DNA of 64,000 nt from Vicinamibacterales bacterium (GTDB taxonomy: Bacteria > Acidobacteriota > Vicinamibacteria > Vicinamibacterales > UBA2999), in NCBI GenBank assembly GCA_035711805.1, contig DASTBV010000100.1, forward strand, positions 1,552 through 65,551, given 5' to 3'. Below the pieces are notes generated by a model that was not told the DNA's origin, did not search any database, and saw nothing but the letters and a program-made list of their open reading frames with translations. Shown piece by piece: positions 5,349-50,394 of this stretch (its first letter is position 1; each line of letters opens with the position of its first letter). Both the position numbers and the translations under genes were made by a program.

Positions 5349-6800
5349 TTACGACGGCTTCGACTTGATGTTCCTGACCATCTGATCAAACGGTTCGATG
5401 ACGCCGTGGACGGGGACGCTTCGCTCGATCTTCAACCCGCGGCGCTCGAGGTTCCGCAGCACGTTCTCGCCCCACGAGTGGCGCAGCCATGTGGCGTCGT
5501 AGAGGTCGGCCTGCACCAGGATCCGATCGCGCGGCACATAGGCGTAGATGTTCGTGCCTTCGCGCGGGTTGTCGAGCAGGTGATAGAGCTGCACTTCCAT
5601 CGACTCGTCCTTCAGCGTCAGCTGATCGTCGACGAGCTCGAAGGTCACCAGGCGGCGCACCTTCTCGAGTGTGTCCGGCGCGATGGTGTGCTGCCGCGCC
5701 ACCAGCGACGTGAAGAACGCTTCGTTGGACCTGTGCGTGACGATGGTCAGCCCCTCGGCGATCGCCACGCGCAGCCCGCCGGAGTGGTCGAAGTGGTGGT
5801 GCGACACGATCGCCTTCGTCAGCGGCTTGGGACTCAGCGTGCGCGCCTTGTCGATCACCGCCTTCGTCCGTGCCTCGTTGACCGGCGCCTCGAACAGAAC
5901 GAGGTGATCGTCGAACTCGAAGACGACGCTGCGGTGGTTGCCCGAACCGGCCAGCCACCAGATCCCTTTCGCCACCGGCTCAACCGTCACCACCACGGGC
6001 GACGGTTCCGGCGCCTTCGCCTGTCTGAGCGCGGCGGAGAGCGCCAGGTCCGACATATCGCCGTCGACGGCGTTCTTCGCCACCTGAAGATCGAGCTGGA
6101 GGTAATAGTCCATCTTCGTGGTGAGCCGCCGCGGCAGCTTCAGACCGCCGACCTCTTCGTAGTCTGAAAACCGCGTTTCGATTGCCACGTCGCCCATGTT
6201 CGGGTTGGCCGCCATCGACACCACGCGCGTCGGCAGATGCGTGGCGGCGTCGATACCCAGGGTCATGGTGCCGCCATCCGGCATGGCGATGTCCACGAGC
6301 CGTTCGCCGGCCCTGGCGCGGAGGTTCGACAAAGTGATGTCCGCGTCGACGATCGTTTTGAGGAACGTGACTGGATGATGCAGCAGCTCGCTGCGGCGAT
6401 CGCGCGCGGCAGCCGCACCGGCGCGGGAGACGGTTCCGCTGGCGGAGACGTTATAGGCGGCGTCGCCGTCGATTCCCTGCGTCTGCCGCTGCACCAGCTC
6501 ACCGGCGAAGAGGAACTGCGCTTCGCGCACCTGCTGCACGCGCGTTCGCCAGTTCACCAGGTCGATTCGCCGGGTGTACTCGGTGACCTTCCATACCGGC
6601 AGCTCGTCCTCCGGCGTGCGGTTCTGTCCCGCGTTCGGCGCCGTGCCGGTGCCTTGAATGGTCAGCGCCTTCACCTCCCTGATCCGGCCGGCGCCACCCA
6701 TCGCCTCGACGGCATCGTCGATGACCTGCTGTTCCTGGGTTGCCGGAGCGCAGGCGCACAGAAGGGATGCGACGAGAACGGTCGCGTATCGTGTGATCAC
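5349..6800 (-). CDS. MBL-fold metallo-hydrolase lipoprotein with N-terminal extra domain
   Basis: Lipobox-like N-terminus MITRYATVLVASLLCAC. The HHHFDHSGG (HxHxDH) motif is in the C-terminal half. Confidence 0.85.
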   Translation of the reverse strand: MITRYATVLVASLLCACAPATQEQQVIDDAVEAMGGAGRIREVKALTIQGTGTAPNAGQNRTPEDELPVWKVTEYTRRIDLVNWRTRVQQVREAQFLFAGELVQRQTQGIDGDAAYNVSASGTVSRAGAAAARDRRSELLHHPVTFLKTIVDADITLSNLRARAGERLVDIAMPDGGTMTLGIDAATHLPTRVVSMAANPNMGDVAIETRFSDYEEVGGLKLPRRLTTKMDYYLQLDLQVAKNAVDGDMSDLALSAALRQAKAPEPSPVVVTVEPVAKGIWWLAGSGNHRSVVFEFDDHLVLFEAPVNEARTKAVIDKARTLSPKPLTKAIVSHHHFDHSGGLRVAIAEGLTIVTHRSNEAFFTSLVARQHTIAPDTLEKVRRLVTFELVDDQLTLKDESMEVQLYHLLDNPREGTNIYAYVPRDRILVQADLYDATWLRHSWGENVLRNLERRGLKIERSVPVHGVIEPFDQMVRNIKSKPS

Positions 6801-6812
6801 TGGGACGTCACC

Positions 6813-7229
6813 TCAGCACCCGGCCGTTCCAACGGCTTCCGAGCCTTCGAACGCGCGGCCATCGATCGTTTTCCCAGTGACTCTGATGATCTGGTTCCCG
6901 CACGTAACCTGCATGTCGCGCACGCGCACCAGCAGCATCCGATCGACGTCCCCGTCCCGGTCGATATCCTCGAGCATCGACCGGAACACCGACGCTTCTT
7001 TCCCCTGTGGGCCGACGAGAATCGTCTCGGGATCGGCAGTCGCCGCGTCGAACTGCGGCGTCGTCAGAATCACGATCGGCAACATGCCTTCGCGTCCGGG
7101 CTCGATGGTCACCTTCTCGTCGCCGGGCTTCACGTCGATGGCGACCTTCAGCGGTGGCTGCATGGCGAGCGTCATCGACCCGGCGGCAACAATGGCGAAC
7201 AGTCCTCCTGCGAAGCAGTGCACGTGCAT
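6813..7229 (-). CDS. hypothetical secreted protein with Asp-rich Ca-binding-like loop
   Basis: ATG at 7229 inside track ORF 6813..8138. GGAGG lies 12 nt upstream. Hydrophobic N-terminus MHVHCFAGGLFAIVAAGSMTLA. A DIDRDGDVD loop is present. It sits 12 nt upstream of the MBL gene, so the two are probably co-transcribed. Confidence 0.55.
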   Translation of the reverse strand: MHVHCFAGGLFAIVAAGSMTLAMQPPLKVAIDVKPGDEKVTIEPGREGMLPIVILTTPQFDAATADPETILVGPQGKEASVFRSMLEDIDRDGDVDRMLLVRVRDMQVTCGNQIIRVTGKTIDGRAFEGSEAVGTAGC

Positions 7230-7282
7230 AGGTCGGCCTCCGGGCGAGATGATAACGCGCGCCGCCAACCCCGGTATGTGCT

Positions 7283-7298
7283 GGTTTCTTGACGAAAC
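7283..7298 (+). promoter_or_regulatory. partial copy of the shared upstream motif (GGTTTCTTGACGAAAC)
   Basis: It lies 43 nt upstream of the histidine-kinase ATG. It matches the core of the 11233 and 26355 copies at 15 of 16 positions and contains the -35-like TTGACG. Confidence 0.45.
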
Positions 7299-7340
7299 TC
7301 CGACAAATCTCCACGTCATCACACAATAGGGCTGCTTATA

Positions 7341-9428
7341 ATGCGCGCCCGACGCCCAGCTATGCACGTGCCCCAATGGCTCCGCCCGCCTCGATTGCTG
7401 CTGCTGGTTTTTGTCGGGACGATGCTGTCGTTTCTCGCCGGGCTGGGCTATTTCGGCTGGCAGTCGATTGAACAGAATCGGGCCTTGCAGGACGACAACG
7501 TGCGCGGAGCGGTCGAGCGGGCGGCAGACCTGATCACATCCGAAATCCGCCAGAAGCTGACCGAATTCGATAACGAGCTGGAACGTCTGGCCGCGGCTCC
7601 CGCCGGCGAACTCGACGCCGCGGCGGCAGCGCTGGGAAAGAAGCTCGGCGACGACGCGCTGCTCGTCGTGTTCGAGGCGGACACCGTTCGCGCCTACCCC
7701 ACGCAGCGGTTGCTGTACCGCCCTGCGGTCGCAGCGCCCGACGAACCGGACCCGCAGGTGTTTGCTCCCGGCGAGGTCTACGAGGAGCAGGGCGAGGATT
7801 ACCCGCGAGCGATCCTGTACTTCCGTGATCTGGCTGACAGCGAAGACTCGCCTGACATTCGCGCCGGCGCCCTCTACCGGCTTGCTCGCAACCAGAAGAA
7901 GCTCGGTCGCCCCACGGATGCTCTGGCGACCTATGCCGAATTGGAGCGCATTCCGTCCGCGTGGGTCGCCGACCGCCCCGCAGATCTCCTTGCGCGATCG
8001 CTTCGAGCGGGCCTGCTCGCGGAACTCGGCCGCCGCGAGGAGCTGCTGGAGGAAGCCCGGCGGCTCGATGTGGACCTGCATAGCGGCCGATGGCCGCTGA
8101 CCCGCCCCCAGTTTCTCGGCTACGCGAACCAGATACAAGAATGGCTCGGCCGCCGCGACCCGGGCCTGCCACCACAGGATCAGCCGGCGATGGCTCTGGC
8201 CACGTCAGTCGAAGACCTGTGGCGCGACTGGCAGCGCGATGCCATCAACCCAACCGGACGCGCCATGTTCATCGCCGAGGGACGTCCGCTGCTTCGTATC
8301 TGGCGGGGAAGAAGCGACCGCTTTCTGGCGCTGGTGGGAGGGGCGACGTTCCTCAAGGATCAACTGATTGACCCGTTGAACGCGATGCTGGACGAGCGCG
8401 AGGTGGGCATCGTGCTCTCGGACCCCGCCACGAAGTTCACCTTGTCGCACGCGCTCCGGACGGCCGGTCCGGCTGGGAGGACCACGCGCGAGCCTTTTCG
8501 GTCCGATCAGTTGATGGATGACACACAGCTGCCGTGGAATCTTCGCGTCATCAGCGCGAGCCCGGGGCCCGATGCCGCGGAATTCGCCAGGAGCCGCCAG
8601 CTCCTGATCGTCGCCATCGCCATTCTCGCGCTCCTGGTGGTGGCCGGCGGCTACTTCAGCGGCCGCGCCATCACGCGCGAGATGGAGGCGGCGCGGCTGC
8701 AATCCGATTTCGTCGCCGCCGTGTCACACGAGTTCCGGACACCGCTCACGCTGCTTCGTCAGTTCTCCGATCTGCTCGCGGACGGGCGCGTTTCGAACGA
8801 CGAGGAACGACACCAGTACTACGCAGCGATCCAACGCGGCACGCGGCGGCTGACGCGGCTCGTCGAAGATCTGCTGGACTTCGGGCGCATGGAGGCGGGG
8901 TCGCATGGATTCCGTTTCGCGAAACTCGACACGCAGGAATGGATCGCCCGCCTTGTCGCCGACTTCAAAGATCAGTTCCGCGGACAGGGATACGAGGTGA
9001 TGCTCGACTGGGCGGTCCCCGAGGGTGCCGTCGTCCACGCCGACGAAGCGGCGATCAGCCGCGCGCTGTGGAACCTGCTGGACAACGCCGTCAAGTATTC
9101 GCCCTCGTCGAAGACGATCTGGATCGGCGGAACGATCGGTGACGGCAAGCTGACGGTCAGCGTGCGCGACCGCGGCATCGGTGTGCCGCATGCAGATCGC
9201 CGCGCCATTTTTCGCAAGTTCGTACGCGGCTCCATGCCGGACGGAAGTGTGGTGAGGGGTACGGGCCTCGGACTCGCCCTCGTCGAACAAATCATGCACG
9301 CCCACGGCGGCGAAGTGCGTCTCGACAGCACCTCGCCGGACGGCAGCACGTTTTCGCTCGTGCTGCCTATCACGGTGCCGGCCAACGCCGTCGCCACTCG
9401 CGCACAGGCGCCGGCCGTTCAGAGGTAA
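7341..9428 (+). CDS. sensor histidine kinase
   Basis: Two TM segments. H-box VSHEFRTPLT, N-box NLLDNAVKYSP, G-box GTGLGLALV. An alternative ATG at 7362 is possible. Confidence 0.9.
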   Translation: MRARRPAMHVPQWLRPPRLLLLVFVGTMLSFLAGLGYFGWQSIEQNRALQDDNVRGAVERAADLITSEIRQKLTEFDNELERLAAAPAGELDAAAAALGKKLGDDALLVVFEADTVRAYPTQRLLYRPAVAAPDEPDPQVFAPGEVYEEQGEDYPRAILYFRDLADSEDSPDIRAGALYRLARNQKKLGRPTDALATYAELERIPSAWVADRPADLLARSLRAGLLAELGRREELLEEARRLDVDLHSGRWPLTRPQFLGYANQIQEWLGRRDPGLPPQDQPAMALATSVEDLWRDWQRDAINPTGRAMFIAEGRPLLRIWRGRSDRFLALVGGATFLKDQLIDPLNAMLDEREVGIVLSDPATKFTLSHALRTAGPAGRTTREPFRSDQLMDDTQLPWNLRVISASPGPDAAEFARSRQLLIVAIAILALLVVAGGYFSGRAITREMEAARLQSDFVAAVSHEFRTPLTLLRQFSDLLADGRVSNDEERHQYYAAIQRGTRRLTRLVEDLLDFGRMEAGSHGFRFAKLDTQEWIARLVADFKDQFRGQGYEVMLDWAVPEGAVVHADEAAISRALWNLLDNAVKYSPSSKTIWIGGTIGDGKLTVSVRDRGIGVPHADRRAIFRKFVRGSMPDGSVVRGTGLGLALVEQIMHAHGGEVRLDSTSPDGSTFSLVLPITVPANAVATRAQAPAVQR

Positions 9429-23898: not shown

Positions 23899-26259
23899 TC
23901 AGCGCGTCGGCACCACGGGGAGCGCCGCTCGCGCACCAGGTGCTGTTCGAATGGCTGTGACGGCTACTTGCTGATCGCTCGTTGCCGCGATCGTCCCCTG
24001 CAGCGTCTGCACCTTGGCGTTCGGGAACAGGTCGTCGAACGTTCTCACCACCTGGCCGTTCGCCGGCACGCGAATCTGCGCGGCCCCGCCCGGCACCGGC
24101 GCACCCGCCTGATCGTGCAGGGCGACCTGGACGCTCGCCGCCTGTCCACTCGACGTCACGGCCAGTTCGGTGGCGATGCCAGCCGCACGGTCACGCACCA
24201 CGGCGGCGACGAAGGCGGTCGCCGGCGTCGCCGCCGGGGTGTCCACAACCGAGGCACCACTAACGACTCGCAGCACAGCGCCGACGTTCCCCTCGTTCGC
24301 TTCGACGTGCGCAAAACCGGTCTGAACCGGGCCTCCAGCCACTGTCGTGAGGACCAGGGTTGCTAACGGTGCAAGGTCGAATGGCGTCGTCGGCGCTGCC
24401 GGCTGCTTGTTGAGCGAGATCGGCCACGGGCGGCCCTGTTGATCCGCCAATGCCACCGTGCCGCGCGCACGGGCCGTGAAGGATGGATTCATCAGGATCA
24501 GACTCGAGCCGGAATCCCCGCCAGCAGTCACCGAACTGAACACGATCGGACCGCCCGCCACGCCGGGCGTGATACGCACCGCAGGTGTCGCTGTCACGAC
24601 GGTCCCGCGGCGCTGCAACGCCACGATGGCAAGGGGACCGCCCTCCTGCGGCCGGTCGCTGCCGACTTCGACGGTGAGCGCCCCCTGGAAGTCACCGAGG
24701 CGCGGAAACAGCTCACGAACCCACACGGTTCGCTGGGCGTAGGGCGCCAGCTCCACGGTGGCGCTGCAACACTCCAATTCGGCGCCGACGGCACTCCGTA
24801 CCGTCAGCTTGACGCGGCTGCGGAGAAGGCTGTTCGTGATGAGGACGCCGCTGCCGCCGGTCGCATCGTCGTTGACCGGCACGATTGCGCCATCCAGCAA
24901 GGCAGACTCAGAGGCGCCGAATGTGCCCAATGCCGCCGACGACGTCCGCGCGGTGAGGCCGAGCGGTACACTCGAAAACAGCTGCGCGGACGCGACGATC
25001 GCCGCTTCCGGCGCAAAGGTCTCGATGACCACTGCGCCCAGCGGCGGAACGCTGAAGGCTCCGGCCTTGAGCGCCTCCGCCCGTGGCGTCACACGCGCAC
25101 CATCCTCGCCGTAGAACACGAGCCGGCCGCTACTCGCTTCCGTTGCAGACGGATTGACGAGCAGGAAGGATGTGGAGCGCGTGGGATCGAGGCCGACGTG
25201 CGGGACAACGTGCGTGTGCTGGACGCGCTCGACGTTGGCGGCGAGGTATGTGCCGGATGTCAGCGGATCCATGAAACGTCCCGGCGCGAGGTCGCGCGGC
25301 GTGAAGCCGCTTAACGTGAGCAGATCCTCGCCCGGTCCGCCGTCCACGATTTCCGTGCCATCGCGGACAACATCGCCGGTTCGAATCACGATGATGTCGT
25401 CGCCGTCGCCGCCGTTTACGACATCCGTGCCGGCGCCGCCGAGCAGCAGGTCGGCGCCGCTGCCGCCGTTGACGAAATCGCGGCCATCGCCGCCGAACAG
25501 CGTGTCCTGATCGTTTCCGCCATCGACGAAGTCGCCGCCGGCGCTGCCCGTCAGAGTGTCGTTGCCAGGCCCGCCTTTGAGCGTGTCGTCGCCCTGACCG
25601 CCATCGATGGTGTCGTCGCCGGCCTCACCGAGGGCCGTGTCATCGCCGTCCCCGCCGGCGATGATGTCGTTGCCGGCACCGCCGGCGATCGAATCGATCC
25701 CGTCGTTGCCGGACAGCCGGTCGTTGTCGGCGCCGCCGGACAGTGAATCGTCTCCGTCGCCGCCGGCGAGCACGTCGTTGCCGGCGGCGCCGCGGAGCAC
25801 GTCAGTGCCGTCACCACCGTCGGCATCGTCAACACCGGGCCCGCCCTCGATCACATCGTCGTCGTCGTTGCCTTCGATCGTGTCGTTGCCGTCGCCGCCG
25901 CGAAGCGTATCGTTCCCAGCGCCGCCATCGATAATGTCGTTTTCGGCGCCACCGTCGACGGTGTCCTCGCCCTCGCCGGCGTCGATTACGTCTCGACCTC
26001 TCCCCCCGGCGATGATGTCCTGCCCCTTCCGGCCGAAGATCCAATCCTCAGCGTCGGTACCGGTCAGGCGGTCGTCTTCGTCCTTGCCTTCAATGACGTT
26101 CTTGGGGCCGGATCCGCGACCCGCTTCGGCAACGGCGTCCGGACGTGGCTTCCCCTGGGCACCTTCCTGCGCCGTCGGCCACTCGGGAACGAACACGACG
26201 CCGAAGATCAGTGCGGCAGCGGCCACCGCATCGCGAGCCGTGAGGTGTAGTTGGATCAT
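23899..26259 (-). CDS. Ca-binding RTX (hemolysin-type GGxGxD nonapeptide) repeat protein with N-terminal signal/anchor and four C-terminal beta-sandwich-like repeats
   Basis: ATG at 26259 (MIQLHLTARDAVAAAALIFGVVFV). About 25 consecutive GGxGxDx(L/I/F)x nonapeptides occupy residues ~62-307. Four ~100-aa repeats follow, each opening with a hydrophobic-x-NPS/NS strand: FLLVNPSATE, VLITNSLLRS, LILMNPSFTA, ELAVTSSGQA. Confidence 0.85.
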   Translation of the reverse strand: MIQLHLTARDAVAAAALIFGVVFVPEWPTAQEGAQGKPRPDAVAEAGRGSGPKNVIEGKDEDDRLTGTDAEDWIFGRKGQDIIAGGRGRDVIDAGEGEDTVDGGAENDIIDGGAGNDTLRGGDGNDTIEGNDDDDVIEGGPGVDDADGGDGTDVLRGAAGNDVLAGGDGDDSLSGGADNDRLSGNDGIDSIAGGAGNDIIAGGDGDDTALGEAGDDTIDGGQGDDTLKGGPGNDTLTGSAGGDFVDGGNDQDTLFGGDGRDFVNGGSGADLLLGGAGTDVVNGGDGDDIIVIRTGDVVRDGTEIVDGGPGEDLLTLSGFTPRDLAPGRFMDPLTSGTYLAANVERVQHTHVVPHVGLDPTRSTSFLLVNPSATEASSGRLVFYGEDGARVTPRAEALKAGAFSVPPLGAVVIETFAPEAAIVASAQLFSSVPLGLTARTSSAALGTFGASESALLDGAIVPVNDDATGGSGVLITNSLLRSRVKLTVRSAVGAELECCSATVELAPYAQRTVWVRELFPRLGDFQGALTVEVGSDRPQEGGPLAIVALQRRGTVVTATPAVRITPGVAGGPIVFSSVTAGGDSGSSLILMNPSFTARARGTVALADQQGRPWPISLNKQPAAPTTPFDLAPLATLVLTTVAGGPVQTGFAHVEANEGNVGAVLRVVSGASVVDTPAATPATAFVAAVVRDRAAGIATELAVTSSGQAASVQVALHDQAGAPVPGGAAQIRVPANGQVVRTFDDLFPNAKVQTLQGTIAATSDQQVAVTAIRTAPGARAALPVVPTR
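25340..26080 (-). repeat. coding tandem repeats (27-nt period) encoding the RTX nonapeptides
   Basis: Repeated GGCGGCGACGGCGACGAC-like codon blocks on the minus strand. Coordinates are approximate and derived from residue numbers. Confidence 0.7.
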
Positions 26260-26355: not shown

Positions 26356-27325
26356 GCTCGGCGAGAAACATCTGCACCTCGTTGAACATCTGCGTTCGAT
26401 TCCGTTCGAGCATCAGATGGTGCGTTCCCTCGCCCACGATCACCAGCCGCTTGCGCGGCGAGTTCGTCAGCCGCGCCAGGATCGCCTGCGCCATGTAGGC
26501 CGGCGTGTCCACGTCCCAGTCGCCCACCACCAGCAGCACCGGCGCTCGGATCGCTGACGGATCGTAGTAGCGTGTGTCCGCTTCCCAGTACTTGAACGCG
26601 TCGACGAGCAGGCCGTTTGGCGCGCGCACGGCGGGCGGGTTCATCTTCGCGCCAACGGGGTCGGCTTCCATGTTGGCCGCCCACCACGATTCGATCACAC
26701 CCGGTGGAATCAGGTCTTTCTGCCGGTCGTGAGCGACACCGGTCAGCCACCGCTGCGTCGCCGCCTCCAGCGTGACGGTGCGATAGGCTCCCATCGGACC
26801 GCTCACGCGCAAGCCGCCCGGAATCCGCCTGACCCAGAGCGGCGCATACATCACGAGCCGCTCCACGTTGTCCGGGTTGTTCGCCGCGTACGCGCCGGCA
26901 ATGACCGTTCCCCATGACCAGCCCATCACGTTCAGCCGCGGCACGCTCCGTCGCTGACGAATGTGATCGACCACGGCTCCGAAATCCGACACGGCATCGT
27001 CCGTCGTCACGACTGGCGCGTTCTCGGCGGCCGGACGATCCATCGCTGGTGGCCGCGTCGATCGGCCGAAGCCGCGGACGTCCATCGAGTACACGTCGTA
27101 GCCGCGGCCGGCGATTGAGTCCATCCACGATGCGCCGTCGATCTTCAGATCGAACATCGTGTCCGACGGGTATGTGGCGCCGTGGACGAACAGGAGCGTG
27201 CGCTCGCCGCTGAACGCGTTCACGCCGTCGGGCCGCGTGTTGCGGACGTACAGGCGAATGTCGGGGTCCGTCGATGGTACGTGATAGCTCTCCGAGATGA
27301 GCCGTTTGCATTTTGCATTTTGCAT
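26339..27325 (-). CDS. alpha/beta hydrolase
   Basis: HG oxyanion block LLFVHGA and nucleophile elbow GWSWG. No signal peptide. The only in-frame ATG (27325) lies inside the TGCAAAA heptamer array. Confidence 0.85.
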   Translation of the reverse strand: MQNAKCKRLISESYHVPSTDPDIRLYVRNTRPDGVNAFSGERTLLFVHGATYPSDTMFDLKIDGASWMDSIAGRGYDVYSMDVRGFGRSTRPPAMDRPAAENAPVVTTDDAVSDFGAVVDHIRQRRSVPRLNVMGWSWGTVIAGAYAANNPDNVERLVMYAPLWVRRIPGGLRVSGPMGAYRTVTLEAATQRWLTGVAHDRQKDLIPPGVIESWWAANMEADPVGAKMNPPAVRAPNGLLVDAFKYWEADTRYYDPSAIRAPVLLVVGDWDVDTPAYMAQAILARLTNSPRKRLVIVGEGTHHLMLERNRTQMFNEVQMFLAEPVKVS

Positions 27326-27334
27326 TTTGCATTG
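27305..27334. repeat. TTTTGCA/TGCAAAA heptamer tandem array (about 4 units)
   Basis: tttgca ttttgca ttttgca ttttgca ttg. On the minus strand this gives ATGs at 27332, 27325, 27318 and 27311. Confidence 0.9.
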
Positions 27335-28199: not shown

Positions 28200-29552
28200 A
28201 TGTCTCTCAACCGAATCGCGATCGTTGCGCTGGTGGTGGTGACCGCCGGGCAGCCTGCCGCTCAGCAGTCAACGACCCCGCAGCCGCCTGTTCTGTTCGA
28301 CGGGGTGACGTATCTCCCGATGGACGGCGAGACCTCGACCACCGTGAACCGTGACCGAAGCGTGCTCGTCTCGAACGGACTCATCACTCAGATCGGAGCA
28401 GCTGGAGCAAAGATCCCCGAAGGAGGAATTCGTGTCGATGGCCGCGGCAAGTTCCTCATGCCGGCGCTCGCTGAAATGCATGCGCACATTCCAAACGATC
28501 CGGCCGAGGCCGAGCGCGTGTTGTTCATGTACGTGGCAAACGGGATCGGCACGATCCGCAGCATGCTCGGTGATCCCTCGCACTTCCGGCTGCGCGAACG
28601 GGTCAGGCGTGGCGAGATAGCCGGACCCGCCATGATCCTGTCGGGACCGTCGTTCAATGCACAGACGGCTTCAACGCCACAGGCCGCGACGTCCAGAGTC
28701 GCGGATCAGGTGAAAGCCGGCTACGACTTTCTCAAGATTCATCCCGGCATTCCGCTCACGGCCTTCAACGCGCTGGCCGCTGCGGCGGGCAAGGCGGCCA
28801 TTCGATTTGCCGGACACGTGCCCGCCGACGTCGGCCTGCGACGGGCGCTGCAACTGAAGTTCTGGACCGTCGATCACCTCGACGGCTACGTGGAGGCGCT
28901 CGCCGGCTCAGGCGCGCCCGCGTCCCAGAACTTCGGCGTCAATCTGATGTCGCACGTCGATGAGTCACGCATCGCCGCGCTTGCCGCCGACACGAAAACA
29001 GCCGGCGTCTGGAACGTGCCGACGCAGATCCTCCTCGAAAACTGGTACGGCCCCGAGTCCGCGGAGACGATGCAGGCACGCCCGGAGATGCAGTACGTGC
29101 GGCCCGCGGAAGCTGCCCAATGGATGGCGACCAAGCGGGACAACGACCGCACCGTGTCGGCGAAGGAGCGGGCGCGGTTCATCGCGGTGCGTCGGCGAAT
29201 GATCAAGGCCCTGCAGGACGCCGGCGCAGGGTTGCTTCTCGGATCGGACGCGCCGCAGGTCTGGAACGTCCCCGGCTTCTCCATTCACCGGGAGCTTGCC
29301 TCGTATGTTGCCGCCGGACTGACGCCCTATCAGGCGCTCGCGACGGGAACCCGCAACATCGCCGCCCATCTGGGCGGATCGGGTCCCCGCTTCGCCGTTC
29401 GGGATATCGACCGGGCGAACCTCGTGCTGCTGGACGCGAACCCGCTCGAGAACATCGCGAATAGTTCGCGAATCGCCGGTGTGATGATCGGCGGTCGCTG
29501 GATCCCCAAAGCGGAAATAGACCGGCGACTGTCAGAACTAAGACCGCGATAA
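28200..29552 (+). CDS. amidohydrolase-family protein, secreted
   Basis: Signal peptide. Metal-binding EMHAHIP block. GGGAGGG SD lies upstream. It is divergent from the cyclase gene with a 26-nt gap. Confidence 0.85.
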   Translation: MSLNRIAIVALVVVTAGQPAAQQSTTPQPPVLFDGVTYLPMDGETSTTVNRDRSVLVSNGLITQIGAAGAKIPEGGIRVDGRGKFLMPALAEMHAHIPNDPAEAERVLFMYVANGIGTIRSMLGDPSHFRLRERVRRGEIAGPAMILSGPSFNAQTASTPQAATSRVADQVKAGYDFLKIHPGIPLTAFNALAAAAGKAAIRFAGHVPADVGLRRALQLKFWTVDHLDGYVEALAGSGAPASQNFGVNLMSHVDESRIAALAADTKTAGVWNVPTQILLENWYGPESAETMQARPEMQYVRPAEAAQWMATKRDNDRTVSAKERARFIAVRRRMIKALQDAGAGLLLGSDAPQVWNVPGFSIHRELASYVAAGLTPYQALATGTRNIAAHLGGSGPRFAVRDIDRANLVLLDANPLENIANSSRIAGVMIGGRWIPKAEIDRRLSELRPR

Positions 29553-29580
29553 TGCAGGATTCAAAATGCAGGATGCAAAA
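29553..29580. repeat. degenerate TGCAAAA heptamer array (4 units)
   Basis: tgcagga ttcaaaa tgcagga tgcaaaa. It starts immediately after the amidohydrolase stop. Confidence 0.85.
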
Positions 29581-29604
29581 CGGCCGCGGAGCCTGTGCTC
29601 TGGC

Positions 29605-29630
29605 TTGCATTTTGAATTTTGCATTTTGCA
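29605..29630. repeat. degenerate TTTTGCA heptamer array, inverted relative to 29553..29580
   Basis: ttgca ttttgaa ttttgca ttttgca. A 24-nt spacer separates it from the preceding array. Confidence 0.85.
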
Positions 29631-29649
29631 CTGCGCACTCTCGTATAAT
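29619..29649 (+). promoter_or_regulatory. candidate sigma70-like promoter (TTGCAT - 19 nt - TATAAT)
   Basis: A perfect TATAAT lies at 29644..29649, 19 nt upstream of the ATG at 29669. The -35-like hexamer comes from the heptamer array. The spacer is longer than optimal. Confidence 0.3.
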
Positions 29650-29668
29650 TCGCGCGCGAGGAGCATTC

Positions 29669-43700: not shown

Positions 43701-43764
43701 CCACGGAGGCGCGGAAACACGGAGATTTCACCCTTCAAACCTCCGTGTCTTCGTGTCTCCGTGG
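43701..43764. repeat. nested inverted repeat (CACGGAG-type hairpin)
   Basis: CCACGGAG-gcgcggaa-ACACGGAG-(16 nt)-CTCCGTGT-cttcgtgt-CTCCGTGG. It fills the DUF1592-type/DUF1552 intergenic gap. Confidence 0.85.
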
Positions 43765-46353: not shown

Positions 46354-47229
46354 ATGTCGTTCAGGTGGTTCGTCCCTGTCCTGGTTGTTCTGAGCCTCTG
46401 CGCGGCCGGCGTCCGCGCGCAGGAACAGTTCACCCTGCTCGCCACCGTCCTCGACCCGGAGAAAGGCACTCCGGTCGAATCGCTGACGCCAGCGGACGTC
46501 CGCGTCACCGAAGACGGCCAGCCGGCCAAGGTTACGAAAGTGGACGCCGTCGTCCGTCAGGTCAAAGTCCAGATCCTCATCGACAACGGCGTCGGCATCG
46601 GCTCGAACCTGGCCGAGTTCCGCAGCGGTGTGCGCAACCTGCTCAGTAGCCTGCCGCCGGACGTCGAAACGACGGTGGTGACGACATCGCCCCAGGGGCG
46701 CTTTCTCGTGCGGGCGACCAAGAACCGCGACGAGCTGCTCAAGGGCGTTGACCGCCTCGCGCCCGACTCCGCAACGGGACGATTCACCGAGTCGCTCAGC
46801 GAAGCGATCGAGCGGGCCAACAAGGAGAAGGACACCTTCACGGTCATCATCTGCGCCGCCACGACGAGCGGCGACGGCCAGGTTATGGCCGCCCACATGC
46901 AGCGCGTCATCAACGCGCTGGGCGGCCGCCCGATCATCGTTCATGTGCTGATGTACTCAGGCGAACGATCGGCGACCGGGGGCGACGCGCAGATCGATCT
47001 CGGGCAGCGCGTCACGAAGATGACCGGCGGGCGCTACGAGAACATCAACAACATGACCCGCTACGTGACCCTGCTTCCGGAGCTCGGCGCCGATGTCGCC
47101 AAACAGGCGACGGGCAACACGCGGCAGTTCCGGATTACGGCACAGCGGCCGGACGGCAAGAAGGGCGAGTTCGGCAAGCTGGCAATGAGCTCCGGGCCGC
47201 GCGCCGTGACGAGCGTAAGGCTGGAATAG
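46354..47229 (+). CDS. VWA-domain protein (TIGR03436-like acidobacterial VWFA-related)
   Basis: Signal peptide. N-terminal strand FTLLATVLDPEKGTPVESLTPADVRVTEDGQPAKV, followed by a VWA-like alternating pattern. GGAGG SD lies upstream. Confidence 0.8.
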   Translation: MSFRWFVPVLVVLSLCAAGVRAQEQFTLLATVLDPEKGTPVESLTPADVRVTEDGQPAKVTKVDAVVRQVKVQILIDNGVGIGSNLAEFRSGVRNLLSSLPPDVETTVVTTSPQGRFLVRATKNRDELLKGVDRLAPDSATGRFTESLSEAIERANKEKDTFTVIICAATTSGDGQVMAAHMQRVINALGGRPIIVHVLMYSGERSATGGDAQIDLGQRVTKMTGGRYENINNMTRYVTLLPELGADVAKQATGNTRQFRITAQRPDGKKGEFGKLAMSSGPRAVTSVRLE

Positions 47230-47232
47230 GAA

Positions 47233-47299
47233 CAGGGATCAGGGATCAGGGATCGGGGATCAGGGATCGGGGATTAGGGATCGGGGATTAGGGATCAGG
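47233..47299 (+). repeat. heptamer tandem array (YRGGGAT) x9 with nine G3-4 tracts
   Basis: cagggat x3, cggggat, cagggat, cggggat, tagggat, cggggat, tagggat, cagg. It lies between the VWA stop and the sugar-dehydrogenase RBS. Confidence 0.95.
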
Positions 47300-47340: not shown

Positions 47341-48534
47341 ATGTTTCGAGTGATCAGCAGGCTGGCCGCGGTTGCCCTCGTCGTCGCGGGGACGGCCACG
47401 CTGTCCGGTAACACCATGTTCACCTCCGCCGTGCACGACTACCGCGTCGTCACCGTGGTGGACGGCCTGGTGCAACCCTGGTCGATCGCCTTTCTGCCAG
47501 GCGGCCCCTCGACTGGGCTCGGGGCCGGTGACATGCTGATCACCGAGCGCCCAGGCCGCTTGCGCATCGTCAGGAACGGCAAGCTCCTGCCGCAGGCGGT
47601 CGACGGTGTGCCCAAGGTATTCCATTCCTCCCAGGGCGGCCTGCTCGAGGTGATGCCGCATCCGAACTTCGCATCGAATCGTCTTCTCTATCTGACGTAC
47701 TCGAAGCCGGGGGCGACCGACGCACAGGCGACGACCACACTCATTCGCGGGCGCTTTGAAAACGACCGCCTGACGAACGTGCAGCAGCTCTTCGAGGCTG
47801 TCGCGCAGGGACGCAATCACTTCAGCGGCAAGATTGCCTTCGACGGCAAGGGCTACCTGTTCCTGTCGGCCGGCGATCGGCAGGCGCCGCCGGAAGGCAA
47901 CCTCGAGGCGCATCCGGCGCAGAACGTCGCGAACCATCAGGGCAAAATCATCCGGCTGCACGACGACGGGCGCGTGCCGGCGGACAATCCGCTGTCGAAG
48001 CAGGCGGGGGCACGGCCGGAGATCTGGAGCTACGGTCACCGCAACGTGCAGGGCCTGGCGATCCACCCGACCACGGGCGAACTGTGGGCCAACGAACATG
48101 GACCGCAGGGCGGCGACGAGTTGAATCGCGTCCAGCCGGGCCAGAACTACGGCTGGCCGGTGATCGGCTACGGCGTCAACTACAACACCGGCGCCGCCAT
48201 CCATGCCGGGACGCACCGCGACGGGATGCAGCAGCCGGTCAACATCTGGGTGCCGTCGATCGGCATCTCCGGGCTGATGATCTACACCGGCGATCGATTC
48301 CCGAAGTGGCGCGGCAATATTTTCGTCGGCGGCATGGCGGCGCAGCAGCTCTCGCGCCTCACCGTCGAGGGATCGCGCGTCGTCAGTCAGGAACTGCTGG
48401 TGCAGCGGATGGGCCGGATCCGTGACGTACGGCAGGGCCCCGATGGCTACATCTACCTGGTCACCGACGACCGCGATGGCAAACCGACTCCGGTGTACCG
48501 CATGGAGCCGGTCGAGCGGGCGCCGATCAAATAA
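47341..48534 (+). CDS. PQQ-dependent sugar dehydrogenase (GSDH/sorbosone dehydrogenase family)
   Basis: Motifs PWSIAFLPGG...MLITERPGRLRIV, HFSGKIAFD, HRNVQGLAIHPTTGELWANEHGPQGGDELN and NYGWP. Confidence 0.9.
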   Translation: MFRVISRLAAVALVVAGTATLSGNTMFTSAVHDYRVVTVVDGLVQPWSIAFLPGGPSTGLGAGDMLITERPGRLRIVRNGKLLPQAVDGVPKVFHSSQGGLLEVMPHPNFASNRLLYLTYSKPGATDAQATTTLIRGRFENDRLTNVQQLFEAVAQGRNHFSGKIAFDGKGYLFLSAGDRQAPPEGNLEAHPAQNVANHQGKIIRLHDDGRVPADNPLSKQAGARPEIWSYGHRNVQGLAIHPTTGELWANEHGPQGGDELNRVQPGQNYGWPVIGYGVNYNTGAAIHAGTHRDGMQQPVNIWVPSIGISGLMIYTGDRFPKWRGNIFVGGMAAQQLSRLTVEGSRVVSQELLVQRMGRIRDVRQGPDGYIYLVTDDRDGKPTPVYRMEPVERAPIK

Positions 48535-48536
48535 AC

Positions 48537-48631
48537 CGTTCGAATCGTTCGAATCGTTCGAATCGTTCGAGTCGTTCGAGTCGTTCGAGTCGTTCGAGTC
48601 GTTCGAGTCGTTCGAGTCGTTCGAGTCGTTC
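48537..48631. repeat. nonamer tandem array, 10.5 units of CGTTCGA(A/G)T
   Basis: 3 x CGTTCGAAT, then 7 x CGTTCGAGT, then CGTTC. I counted it base by base. Confidence 0.95.
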
Positions 48632-48992
48632 AGCGGGTCGCGCGAACCTCCGCCGCTCTCGCCTTGATCAGCCGCTTGACCAGCGCCACTGGCAACGGCT
48701 GGTCGAGCGGAAACTGAATCGTCCCCTTCGACGTCTTGTAGCCCTTCAGACTGGCGGCGTACGCGCGCCTGATTCGATCGCCCATCGGATACAGGCTGGT
48801 GTGCTCCCGGAACGCCGCGTAATAGACGAACACTTTCCCGTCCAACCGGAAACCGGGAATCCGATAGGAAAAGGTTTCGACTGCCGACGGGGCGATAGAT
48901 TTGACGATCGCGCGCATCTCCTTCATCCGCCGGCGTGACGGCGGCGGCAGCGCGGCGAAATACTCGCGAACCAGCTCTGCGGGAGTTGCCAT
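48630..48992 (-). CDS. DUF1801 (YdhG-like) domain protein
   Basis: AAGGAG lies 7 nt upstream of the ATG at 48992. Family-like pattern: IAPSAVETFSYRIPGFRLDGKVFVYYAAFREHTSLYP...GTIQFPLDQPLP. The gene is bracketed by inverted nonamer arrays. Confidence 0.8.
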   Translation of the reverse strand: MATPAELVREYFAALPPPSRRRMKEMRAIVKSIAPSAVETFSYRIPGFRLDGKVFVYYAAFREHTSLYPMGDRIRRAYAASLKGYKTSKGTIQFPLDQPLPVALVKRLIKARAAEVRATR

Positions 48993-49011
48993 TGCGCAGC
49001 TCCTTGTTGCG

Positions 49012-49107
49012 ACGATTCGAACGAACCGAACGACTCGAACGACTCGAACGACTCGAACGACTCGAACGACTCGAACGACTCGAACGACTCGAACGACTCG
49101 AACGATT
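49012..49107. repeat. nonamer tandem array, reverse complement of the 48537 array
   Basis: ACG, then ATTCGAACG, then AACCGAACG, then 8 x ACTCGAACG, then ATT. Confidence 0.95.
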
Positions 49108-49546
49108 AAGACGTCGACAGACTCTGAATACTGCGGCGGAACTCGAGCGGGTTGGCGATGTTGTGGAACGTTTCGCGCACGCCGCCGGTGCCGGTCAGCG
49201 TGATCGTGCCGAAGTTGAAGATGCGTCCGGTGAGGCTCTGGTCGACGGAGATCGCTTCCACCTGCCGAATCAGCAACTCGAGCGTGCGCCGCTGAATGAG
49301 ACCGACCTTGATGATCACGCGCTTGCTCGTGACGCCGAACTCCGACGTGGTGCGTTCCAGCCAGGGCGGCACTGCCATCAACAGGCCCACCCCACCGATG
49401 ATCGCCCCAACCATCGGCTGTAAGACGGTCAGCACGACCAGGCCGACGACGACCACCGCGATCGCCTTGAGAAACACGATCCAGTGCAGACGCGCACGCT
49501 GGACCACAGCCTCACCGGGCAACAGATTCGCTTCGATGTATCCCAT
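49106..49546 (-). CDS. bacterial PH-domain (bPH_2, YdbS/YdbT-like) membrane protein
   Basis: ATG at 49546 overlaps the upstream stop (TAATG). LLPGEAVVQRARLHW, then two TM segments, then a PH-like C-terminal part. Confidence 0.8.
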   Translation of the reverse strand: MGYIEANLLPGEAVVQRARLHWIVFLKAIAVVVVGLVVLTVLQPMVGAIIGGVGLLMAVPPWLERTTSEFGVTSKRVIIKVGLIQRRTLELLIRQVEAISVDQSLTGRIFNFGTITLTGTGGVRETFHNIANPLEFRRSIQSLSTS

Positions 49547-50394
49547 TACTGCTTCCTGTGGAGATTGAGCGTCACGTGGTTGGTCCCTTCCTTCGAAACG
49601 AACGACTGCTGCAGAAATTCGCCGCTGAATCCGGCCGGCACCCATCCTTCAGTCGCGTAACGGAAGAGCGTGGCGAGATAGACGCCCTGCAGCGTCGAGA
49701 AGAACACCGTCAGCGCGATCGCACCGGCCACGAACAGCCCAATCCCCGCCGGGCGTCCGGCGAACAGGGCCACCGCGGCCGCAATCGCCATCAACGCCAC
49801 CCACATGACGAGCGCGGCGAGACCGACGGTCACTGGGACCGCGATGCTCTCGCCCCACGTCTCCTTGAAGACGCTCACGGATCGAGTGAACGAATCGCGA
49901 ATCGATCGCTCCTCCAGCACGAGCACCGGCACGATGAAGAACGTCGCCAGCGACCACGCGATGCCGAGCACCCTCGTGAGCAGTTGGCCGAGAAAACCGG
50001 CCTTGTCGTGGATCGCGCGGATGACAGTGCCGACCGTCGCGGCAACGAGCGCCCACGCGACGATCGACCCGATTCGCCGTCCGGCAGCCGACAACGCCGA
50101 TCCCACAGTCGGATCACCACCGCGCATCCGCTCGGTCGCACCAGCGACTACGGCTGCCTGGAAGAAGATGCCGACCGTATAGACGACGACGAACAGCAGA
50201 AAGAGGGGGGCGTAGGTGTCGAAGCCGCCAGCCCGCACAACTGACGGCGTCAGACCGAAGCCGAAAGCGAAGCTCAGGGCCACGCTGATATTGATGACAC
50301 CCGCGATTAACGGCAACACCATCAGCTCCTTGTCGTGCAGGAGAATCCGGTACGACTGCGTGACGATGTCGAAGCTTCGGCTGAGACGTTCCAT
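49546..50394 (-). CDS. polytopic membrane protein (DUF6159-like)
   Basis: N-terminus MERLSRSFDIVTQSYRILLHDKELMVLPLIAGV and about 6 TM segments. The family call is from memory of this N-terminal pattern. Confidence 0.7.
   Translation of the reverse strand: MERLSRSFDIVTQSYRILLHDKELMVLPLIAGVINISVALSFAFGFGLTPSVVRAGGFDTYAPLFLLFVVVYTVGIFFQAAVVAGATERMRGGDPTVGSALSAAGRRIGSIVAWALVAATVGTVIRAIHDKAGFLGQLLTRVLGIAWSLATFFIVPVLVLEERSIRDSFTRSVSVFKETWGESIAVPVTVGLAALVMWVALMAIAAAVALFAGRPAGIGLFVAGAIALTVFFSTLQGVYLATLFRYATEGWVPAGFSGEFLQQSFVSKEGTNHVTLNLHRKQ

Follow-up and report, generated by a model that had tools for sequence, protein, structure and literature searches.

Inverted nonanucleotide repeat arrays around a DUF1801 gene belong to an intergenic repeat family dispersed in Vicinamibacterales

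Repetitive extragenic palindromic (REP) elements, with their BIME (bacterial interspersed mosaic element) and REPIN (REP doublet forming hairpins) forms in enterobacteria and pseudomonads, are extragenic hairpins which are often inverted doublets and concentrate after the 3' ends of genes and between convergent genes. A role in stabilising or terminating transcripts is attributed to them, and some mobile elements insert into them; each REP unit is one imperfect palindrome some 20-40 nt long, and REPINs are tied to RAYT (REP-associated tyrosine transposase) enzymes, which are IS200/IS605-like. The intervening sequences of 23S rRNA form a long stem from inverted flanks with a PF05635 open reading frame (ORF) in the loop, and are excised by RNase III. 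The MIRU-VNTR loci (mycobacterial interspersed repetitive unit-variable number tandem repeat) are intercistronic operon repeats lying against stop and start codons, with 40-100-bp units, in direct orientation only and without hairpins. Cyanobacteria carry short tandemly repeated repetitive (STRR) heptamers, and 'long simple sequence repeats' (LSSR) have units of 5-11 nt (Mrazek et al. 2007, as quoted in PMC4679880 and PMC4060949). The TAACTGA direct repeats of marine Beggiatoaceae, cyanobacteria and Bacteroidetes are intergenic and their mode of spread is unexplained; the sets have 2-6 copies, mostly forward and just upstream of start codons, with 1 indirect of about 170 (PMC4679880). In this study we analysed a 64,000-nt stretch of contig DASTBV010000100.1 from a Vicinamibacterales bacterium (the window), where a small DUF1801 gene is bracketed by two inverted arrays of a 9-nt tandem repeat, called A and B here. 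The two arrays are members of a repeat family spread through Vicinamibacterales. We consider it probable, at roughly 60%, that they are separate members of a REP/STRR-like, slippage-prone family of 3'-end hairpins and not a device for DUF1801.

The arrays and the adjoining genes are as follows:
48537-48631, plus strand: array B (left), 3 x CGTTCGAAT, 7 x CGTTCGAGT and CGTTC
49012-49107, minus strand: array A (right), on the forward strand ACG, ATTCGAACG, AACCGAACG, 8 x ACTCGAACG and ATT
48630-48992, minus strand: DUF1801 (YdhG-like) gene, 120 aa (Pfam PF08818, E 1.8e-13)
48993-49011, minus strand: DUF1801 leader with the Shine-Dalgarno (SD) sequence AAGGAG at 49000-49005 (comparison with relatives)
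49106-49645, or 49106-49546 with a 146-aa start, minus strand: bacterial PH-domain gene (bPH_2; Pfam PF03703, E 6.8e-13)
47341-48534, plus strand: glucose/sorbosone dehydrogenase gene (GSDH), convergent with DUF1801 (Pfam PF07995, E 7.7e-126)

On the minus strand, array A reads 8 x CGTTCGAGT, CGTTCGGTT and CGTTCGAAT. By Tandem Repeats Finder (TRF), array B has 10.6 units of CGTTCGA(A/G)T (period 9, 98% matches) and array A has 10.4 copies (period 9, 95% matches). A preliminary description of this locus had given the coordinates and unit composition of both arrays, which we confirmed unit for unit in the sequence. It had also counted at least seven units (63 nt) of perfect complementarity, and this was exceeded: the arms span 96 nt with 93% complementarity, and the longest perfect run is 71 nt (48561-48631 against 49037-49107). 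A two-unit pattern allowing up to 2 mismatches had 18 matches in the window, all within arrays A and B, where shuffled sequences expect 0.01. Array B occupies the whole convergent spacer from the GSDH stop (48532-48534) to the DUF1801 stop (48630-48632); it begins 2 nt past the former, overlaps the latter and reads CGTTCGART in the GSDH sense. Array A overlaps the stop of the PH gene, whose 146-aa start is the choice of gene callers on relatives, and its other end lies 19 nt ahead of the DUF1801 ATG. The arrays fill both gaps and leave only the AAGGAG SD before the ATG, just as had been described, and Pfam agreed with the proposed identities of the DUF1801, PH-domain and sugar dehydrogenase genes. 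Both arrays recur in independent assemblies, long contigs among them, so they are no assembly artefact.

The unit of the family, CGTTCGNNT, is 9 nt long with a palindromic core (TTCGAA/TCGA). We scanned for three consecutive units in one genome per species, and it turned out that 74 genome stretches matched, of which 55 come from metagenome-assembled genomes (MAGs) of Vicinamibacterales or other Acidobacteriota. Three Vicinamibacterales MAGs have 21, 12 and 7 loci, and any genome of another phylum has at most 2. The metagenome scan gave at least 120 matching stretches; the short-read contigs there often start or stop within an array, and copy numbers in them are untrustworthy. The fetched loci (labelled L001 and so on below) are rich in intergenic 7-9-nt arrays of many different units (TRF). 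An array is very often followed immediately by its own inverted copy, giving a long hairpin with tandem-repeat arms, and in two cases (L029, L001) a T-run comes after such a hairpin, like an intrinsic terminator.

Where the arrays sit relative to genes was summarized with a home-made codon-usage gene caller trained on the fetched loci; having an array was the criterion by which these loci were picked, and a few of the metagenome loci stand for one and the same site in different samples. A typical array starts 0-4 nt from a stop codon and ends 11-19 nt before the next start. The spacers with an array are co-directional in 68 cases, convergent in 31 and divergent in 9, compared with 458, 102 and 113 for the spacers without, which means that arrays are enriched in convergent spacers (odds ratio (OR) 2.25, p 0.0013) and depleted in divergent ones (OR 0.45, p 0.02). 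Among the matches listed, 21 of 22 adjacent hairpins with both neighbours called adjoin the 3' end of a gene, and 9 of the 22 adjacent pairs lie between convergent genes. Single arrays between co-directional genes are sense in 8 cases and antisense in 6. We rejected the idea that an array must come after a stop codon and in the CGTTCGAGT sense, the sharp ends falling at 25 sense stops and 13 antisense starts. The preliminary description had considered that the arrays might be found elsewhere only singly and at random, which is not the case given the 3'-end bias, the many inverted pairs and the dispersed loci. The search for further arrays that it suggested gave many loci, with inverted pairs that are mostly adjacent and in some cases placed around single PF05635 genes.

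The inverted pairs have a fixed polarity. Pairs were counted over the genome loci and 120 metagenome loci among the matches listed, with '+-' meaning that the CGTTCG arm comes first:
Adjacent pairs, up to 150 nt apart: 30 '+-', 0 '-+'
Gene-sized pairs, 150-1500 nt apart: 11 '+-', 3 '-+', 11 direct

The adjacent inverted pair is the commonest arrangement of the family among these matches, and all 30 pairs read 5'-(CGTTCGNNT)n-loop-(ANNCGAACG)n-3', for example L041:542-693, L095:3180-3360 and L131:7432-7725. The same stem would form with either polarity, and the binomial p is about 1e-8 on the first 27 pairs. Fold-back priming by the more self-complementary strand was rejected as the cause, since the asymmetry is modest for the AGT variant (-24.1 versus -17.9 kcal/mol between the strands as DNA) and absent for the AAT variant. 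In the flanks and loops of 27 pairs there are no conserved loops, termini or target-site duplications, only a stop-codon-like TA(A/G) beside the outer unit. Termini like those of miniature inverted-repeat transposable elements (MITEs) were rejected as well: stop codons within an outermost unit that has mutated account for the TA-rich flanks (TAGT/TAAT for GAGT/GAAT; TGAACG for CGAACG). For the gene-sized pairs, removal of six brackets around PF05635 genes, treated below, leaves 5 '+-', 3 '-+' and 11 direct pairs, where independent arrays expect 1:1:2. These numbers fit independence, and therefore the pair in the window needs no explanation beyond coincidence, its orientation having a chance of about one in four.

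Compared with the described systems, the family combines several features. Like STRR and LSSR, it has a head-to-tail unit within 5-11 nt, many intergenic loci per genome, a lineage-restricted distribution, variable copies and presumed slippage; unlike them, its unit is a 9-mer with a palindromic core, its arrays are mostly inverted pairs of one polarity with a 3'-end bias, and its hosts are Acidobacteriota. All features that define STRR/LSSR are found here, namely a short tandem unit, many loci per genome, a mainly intergenic position and differing copy number, the last with the caveat of short-read assembly. As with TAACTGA, a single short unit prevails among a genome's intergenic tandem repeats and the arrays abut the boundaries of coding sequences, but the CGTTCGNNT arrays are longer, 3'-end biased and commonly inverted. 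The likeness to REP elements lies in the extragenic position, the concentration at 3' ends, the rarity in divergent spacers and the inverted hairpin doublets (30 adjacent pairs among the matches listed). The differences are a tandem 9-mer in place of one 20-40-nt palindrome, the palindromic part of the unit being only the 6-10-nt core (TTCGAA, CGTTCGAACG), and the absence of conserved loops and flanks. MIRU-VNTR loci are similar in having variable-number tandem repeats which abut the stop or start of the flanking genes, but the units here are of 9 nt and form inverted hairpin pairs. A contingency-repeat character does not apply, with a 9-nt unit and both arrays lying between a stop and an SD or another stop. 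Neither does that of a CRISPR array, as the units are contiguous without unique spacers. What sets the CGTTCGNNT family apart is the combination of tandem 9-mer hairpin arms, fixed polarity, host phylum and a link to PF05635. We found no paper on Vicinamibacter with tandem repeats or on Acidobacteria with nonanucleotide repeats, and no description of the family. The preliminary description knew of no described element class with this architecture; this was too strong, because STRR/LSSR, the TAACTGA repeats (PMC4679880) and REP-like hairpins are known.

A single array is predicted to fold on itself through the TCGA/TTCGAA core, with -53 kcal/mol as RNA of the CGUUCGAGU strand and a z-score of about -5 as DNA. 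In the minus-strand RNA from 49150 to 48500, the region whose fold the preliminary description had pointed to, arrays A and B are predicted to pair as one stem (-363.8 kcal/mol, z = -14), and the A:B arm duplex by itself is predicted at -174 kcal/mol. No sigma-70-type promoter and no canonical terminator were predicted between the PH gene and DUF1801, and no promoter match spans the arrays; the terminator scan, too, gave nothing at either array. The window contains no match to Rfam families (rRNA included) and no tRNA.

The reading we prefer would work in the following way. Arrays of the family occupy intergenic spacers, reaching from one stop codon to the following stop or SD. They would grow and shrink by replication slippage, and may persist because, as REP-like hairpins at 3' ends, they terminate, insulate or stabilise transcripts. 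Such a 3'-end role is supported because an ordinary terminator replaces array B in one relative (L082). If transcription read through from the PH gene over DUF1801 into array B, the arms could pair in an RNA duplex of about 71-96 bp, in which cleavage by RNase III would be expected. The A:B duplex would then be a by-product of two neighbouring arrays that are inverted by chance, not something selected for DUF1801.

The history of the locus speaks against a special role of the bracket. Among 895 DUF1801 homologues found, those at 72-100% identity share the PH...DUF1801-GSDH synteny, and those at 59-67% identity are in other, unrelated operons. The unit numbers in syntenic relatives are:
L075, identical DUF1801 protein: array A 8.4 units, array B 12.6 units
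L078, identical DUF1801 protein: array A 7.8 units, array B 8.6 units
L083, identical DUF1801 protein: array A about 7 units, array B 6.6 units
L085: array A 8-9 units, array B 3.5 units
L086: array A 6-7 units, array B 4.5 units
L087, 410-kb contig, DUF1801 at 74% identity: array A 11.6 units, array B 4.6 units
L088, 5.6-Mb contig, DUF1801 at 72% identity: array A 6.9 units, array B 6.6 units

Besides, the syntenic L001, from a MAG about 91.5% DNA-identical to the window, has 3.6 units in array B, a difference from the window of exactly 7 units (63 nt). Logan contigs (k=31; L077, L079, L080) were left out of the unit counts, as both arrays there collapse to about 3 units or the contig ends inside. 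The variation in unit number for which the preliminary description had suggested a check is thus seen among assemblies. L085 and L086 come from two samples and have an identical DUF1801 protein, yet both arrays differ in unit number, and all four arrays are shorter than about 85 nt, within the span of single reads. Arm lengths look parallel in the window's lineage (10/10.6, 8.4/12.6 and 7.8/8.6) and are uncorrelated deeper (9.2/2, 7.2/0 and 11.6/4.6). A co-variation of the two arms was rejected, because it fails in these deeper relatives and is also confounded by assembly.

Array A comes directly after the PH stop wherever the contig covers the junction (L075, L078, L079, L083, L081, L082, L085, L086, L087, L088), with 6-12 units and differing unit variants; the L084 contig begins inside an array preceding the SD of a zinc-ribbon gene. 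Array B is less constant. It has about 2 units in L081, is absent in L084, whose two genes overlap, and L082 has in its position an ordinary terminator hairpin, GGTCCGCC-CAAA-GGCGGAC with a T-run after it. The distance from A to B ranges from 0.38 to 3.8 kb among relatives, with 1 to 6 genes between. DUF1801 is the sole gene there in the window's lineage, whereas L081-L086 have a zinc-ribbon gene plus DUF1801, L087 has VapBC plus DUF1801 (about 1.1 kb), and in L088 about 3.8 kb hold two toxin-antitoxin pairs, a gene of 201 aa and a third array besides DUF1801. The third array of L088 (2299-2339) is inverted and follows a PIN gene. The PH/DUF1801 junction is a hotspot for small genes (L081:2783-3004, L085:731-907, L087:3314-3966, L088:623-3785).

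In L081, L082 and L084-L086 (85-89% protein identity), AAAGGAG comes after array A, and then a zinc-ribbon gene of 58-73 aa which overlaps the start of DUF1801. The leader of these relatives reads CGTTCGAAAGGAGCTGTGCCGTTG..., which is the SD and the start of the CPRC...CPRC gene, and that of the window's lineage reads ...AAGGAGCTGCGCAATG. Judging from this comparison, the zinc-ribbon gene was cleanly deleted in the window's lineage and its SD now serves DUF1801; this deletion is the reason that array A and the ATG have nothing but an SD between them. The arrays stay put in relatives while the enclosed genes change, therefore each array is an old fixture of its own spacer and the one-gene bracket is recent. 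The single-gene bracket around DUF1801 would accordingly be read as an accident of the zinc-ribbon deletion and two neighbouring arrays.

Brackets around a single gene do recur in the family, with a different cargo. Among the matches listed, 6 of the 11 '+-' gene-sized pairs (the window's pair counted) bracket a PF05635 gene (L029, L065b, L172, L186, L200, L206). There are two more such brackets, L065a with short arms and L051 with 7-mer arms (AAGGACC x 14). In all, eight loci have inverted arrays around PF05635, with CGTTCGNNT-family arms in seven and the 7-mer in L051, at a spacing of 0.45-0.57 kb where measured:
L029:137-858, PF05635 gene between inverted arrays
L065:3298-3791 and 6844-7544, two such brackets
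L172:435-1084, the same
L186:552-1209, the same
L200:282-902, the same
L206:4266-5064, the same
L051:6603-7179, the same
L017:7498-7924, PF05635 gene with a one-sided array
L117:7-388, PF05635 gene with a one-sided array

Each of the 10 PF05635 genes that the fetched loci contain is in contact with an array, in loci that were chosen for having arrays, and the ORFs run into the downstream array. We take PF05635, from its Pfam family name, to be the 23S rRNA intervening-sequence protein, a four-helix bundle. A PF05635 profile search of the window found nothing, and the spacers of L015 and L182 hold no PF05635 remnants (L182 has a 195-aa lipoprotein-like ORF, L015 no convincing ORF). Filled and empty sites were also seen. 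The L051 bracket (6603-7179) is missing at L044:5056-5117, where 75%-identical flanks are joined by 62 nt with no array. The L065b bracket (6844-7544) corresponds to 46 nt in L201:1087-1132, with a two-unit remnant of one arm and flanks 87-93% identical. In L206 the flank on the left is that of L065a and the one on the right that of L065b, which looks like a deletion of about 3 kb between two brackets. A presence-absence pattern as in MITEs or transposons therefore holds for L051 versus L044, but not for the DUF1801 locus, where the gene stays with or without array B.

The PF05635 brackets bear a resemblance to rRNA intervening sequences, and the preliminary description had likened the DUF1801 stem to the processing stalks of rRNAs. 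That likeness holds in so far as arrays elsewhere bracket PF05635 genes, and as the window's arms of 96 nt (71 perfect) are predicted to form a stem around a small ORF. It does not hold for the window element as such, which is not in an rRNA gene, has protein-coding flanks and carries PF08818, not PF05635. The architecture that was described does exist as a recurrent, possibly mobile unit, but one with PF05635 as its cargo.

Other 7-9-nt arrays and hairpins with tandem arms lie in nearby spacers of the window and of relatives, and with arrays A and B counted three consecutive spacers in the window hold arrays. At 47229-47299 (plus strand), GGATCAG x 10 runs from the stop of a 291-aa gene towards the GSDH SD; this spacer has 6 copies in L001, 11 in L075/L076 and none in L087, and the equivalent spacer in L088 (5634-5667) has CGAACGACT x 3.8 instead. 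At 43701-43764, after an 815-aa PSD/cytochrome gene, there is a hairpin with 8-mer arms of the CTCCGTGT type (-48 to -53 kcal/mol, z -4 to -5). In the 91.5%-identical relative, the orthologous spacer (L001:2859-2978) has a hairpin with quite different 9-mer arms (GCCTGGGTN) and then a T-run. In this spacer the hairpin persists although its arm sequence has been replaced.

These observations have to be weighed against other explanations. We think it unlikely, though far from absurd, that the arrays are purely neutral microsatellites, that is, functionless slippage filler tolerated only where coding sequences and promoters are unharmed. Unit number and variants turn over fast, one spacer can have different unit families by lineage (47229-47299 versus L088 5634-5667; 43701-43764 versus L001 2859-2978), and the arrays end exactly at stop codons or SDs, as purifying selection alone would give. 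However, A and B hold their positions in relatives with as little as 72% protein identity, convergent spacers show an excess of arrays, a canonical terminator takes the place of B in L082, and the pair polarity is strict (30:0 among the matches listed). A and B could also be the arms of one ancestral hairpin between convergent PH and GSDH genes, in whose loop small, often mobile genes were inserted. This would parallel the PF05635 genes inside such pairs and the intervening sequences in rRNA hairpin loops. The window pair has the polarity of the 30 adjacent pairs and the PF05635 brackets (CGTTCG arm first), many adjacent pairs (9 of 22) have convergent genes on their two sides, all among the matches listed, and the A-B interval gains and loses toxin-antitoxin and other small genes, with the third array of L088 after a PIN gene. 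The [array-PF05635-array] sites are filled or empty, with both arms and the gene lacking in L044 compared with L051, and one arm and the gene lacking in L201 compared with L065b. We nevertheless give this history a rather slim chance: a relative in which PH and GSDH converge on a hairpin without cargo was not found, all syntenic relatives have DUF1801 at the site, even L082 and L084 without array B, the unit variants and lengths of the arms evolve independently, and the orientations of gene-spaced pairs without PF05635 fit chance (5:3:11 among the matches listed). A broader proposal, which we regard as similarly doubtful, is that inverted 7-9-nt array arms are an intervening-sequence-like element outside rRNA in Vicinamibacterales. 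The hairpins would serve as landing pads or termini for small genes, with PF05635 as main cargo and toxin-antitoxin, zinc-ribbon and DUF1801 genes as further cargo, cleavage of the arm duplex by RNase III would cut out or control the message inside, the DUF1801 locus would represent a swap of cargo, and the 30:0 polarity would reflect how the element is made or copied.

A dedicated RNA device, in which the arrays were selected to pair, with RNase III then cutting out or silencing the message of DUF1801, is improbable in our view. The pairing potential is large (71 nt perfect, 96 nt at 93%, a duplex of -174 kcal/mol, z = -14 for the region), neither promoter nor terminator is predicted between PH and DUF1801, and both arms are long in the window's lineage (10/10.6 units; L075 8.4/12.6; L078 7.8/8.6). 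Yet array B is missing, vestigial or replaced in L084, L081 and L082 while A stays long, A and B are between 0.38 and 3.8 kb apart, the arm lengths show no correlation among the deeper relatives, and the same arrays also occur singly in both senses to transcription (8 sense, 6 antisense). The RNA stem with the ORF as its loop, as the preliminary description put it, is therefore borne out as a predicted structure, but the bracket is not conserved, with distance, cargo and array B all varying. Its other suggestion, an invertible cassette or cruciform switch in which recombination between the inverted arrays flips the 380-nt segment, found no support and seems very improbable. Perfect inverted homology of 71 nt suffices for occasional RecA-mediated inversion, so a rare flip could happen, and the SD would move with the gene, which makes expression possible both ways. 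But every contig with the gene and a flanking gene shows one orientation (assemblies report the majority form), and the architecture varies among relatives. The inverted flanking repeats of a switch are present, whereas no recombinase or invertase is among the eight neighbouring genes assigned by Pfam within about 5 kb (amidase, Rce1-like, DUF6159, bPH_2, DUF1801, GSDH, an unknown gene and a PSD/cytochrome protein).

Several points weigh against the hairpin-family reading that we prefer. The roles of termination, stabilisation and RNase III cleavage are all ones that we infer. Array A lies in an apparent operon with no room for a promoter before DUF1801 and therefore cannot terminate efficiently there. 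Most of the differences in copy number were seen in short-read assemblies, where repeats can collapse, and the family statistics rest on our own gene caller, on array-selected loci and on a set with a few duplicate sites. The 30:0 polarity is not explained by this reading and hints at a directed process or common descent. Same-unit arrays also cluster locally more than it explains.

Further repeats were observed in the window and in the fetched loci. A hairpin with AAAATGC-type 7-mer arms lies at 29547-29643, just upstream of a TATAAT-like box and an ATG at 29650, and a TTTGCAT x 4 array lies at 27305-27333, its 7-mer being found also in L010 (6420-6449). Overlapping GC-rich repeats with 27- and 54-nt periods (25396-25894, 63-88% matches) are probably a repeat-containing coding region. 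In L036 (620-778, 3494-3598, 6275-6361) and L148 (1400-1570, 4301-4462), hairpin-type pairs share loops and flanks within the contig. Each lies directly upstream of an ATGAA... start without an obvious SD, and they resemble copies duplicated with paralogous genes.

In conclusion, the bracket around DUF1801 looks accidental, a result of neighbouring arrays and one deletion, and therefore DUF1801 needs no special mechanism. The analysis points to an abundant, little-studied soil lineage whose intergenic tandem-repeat hairpins are numerous, evolve fast and have one dominant 9-nt unit. Such a family could give VNTR markers for strain typing in metagenomes, and it accounts for broken contigs and for the collapse of repeats when short reads are assembled. 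Besides, the association of arrays with PF05635 offers a handle on the spread of intervening-sequence proteins and on why their flanks form stems, and the family is a candidate functional equivalent of REP elements in Acidobacteriota.

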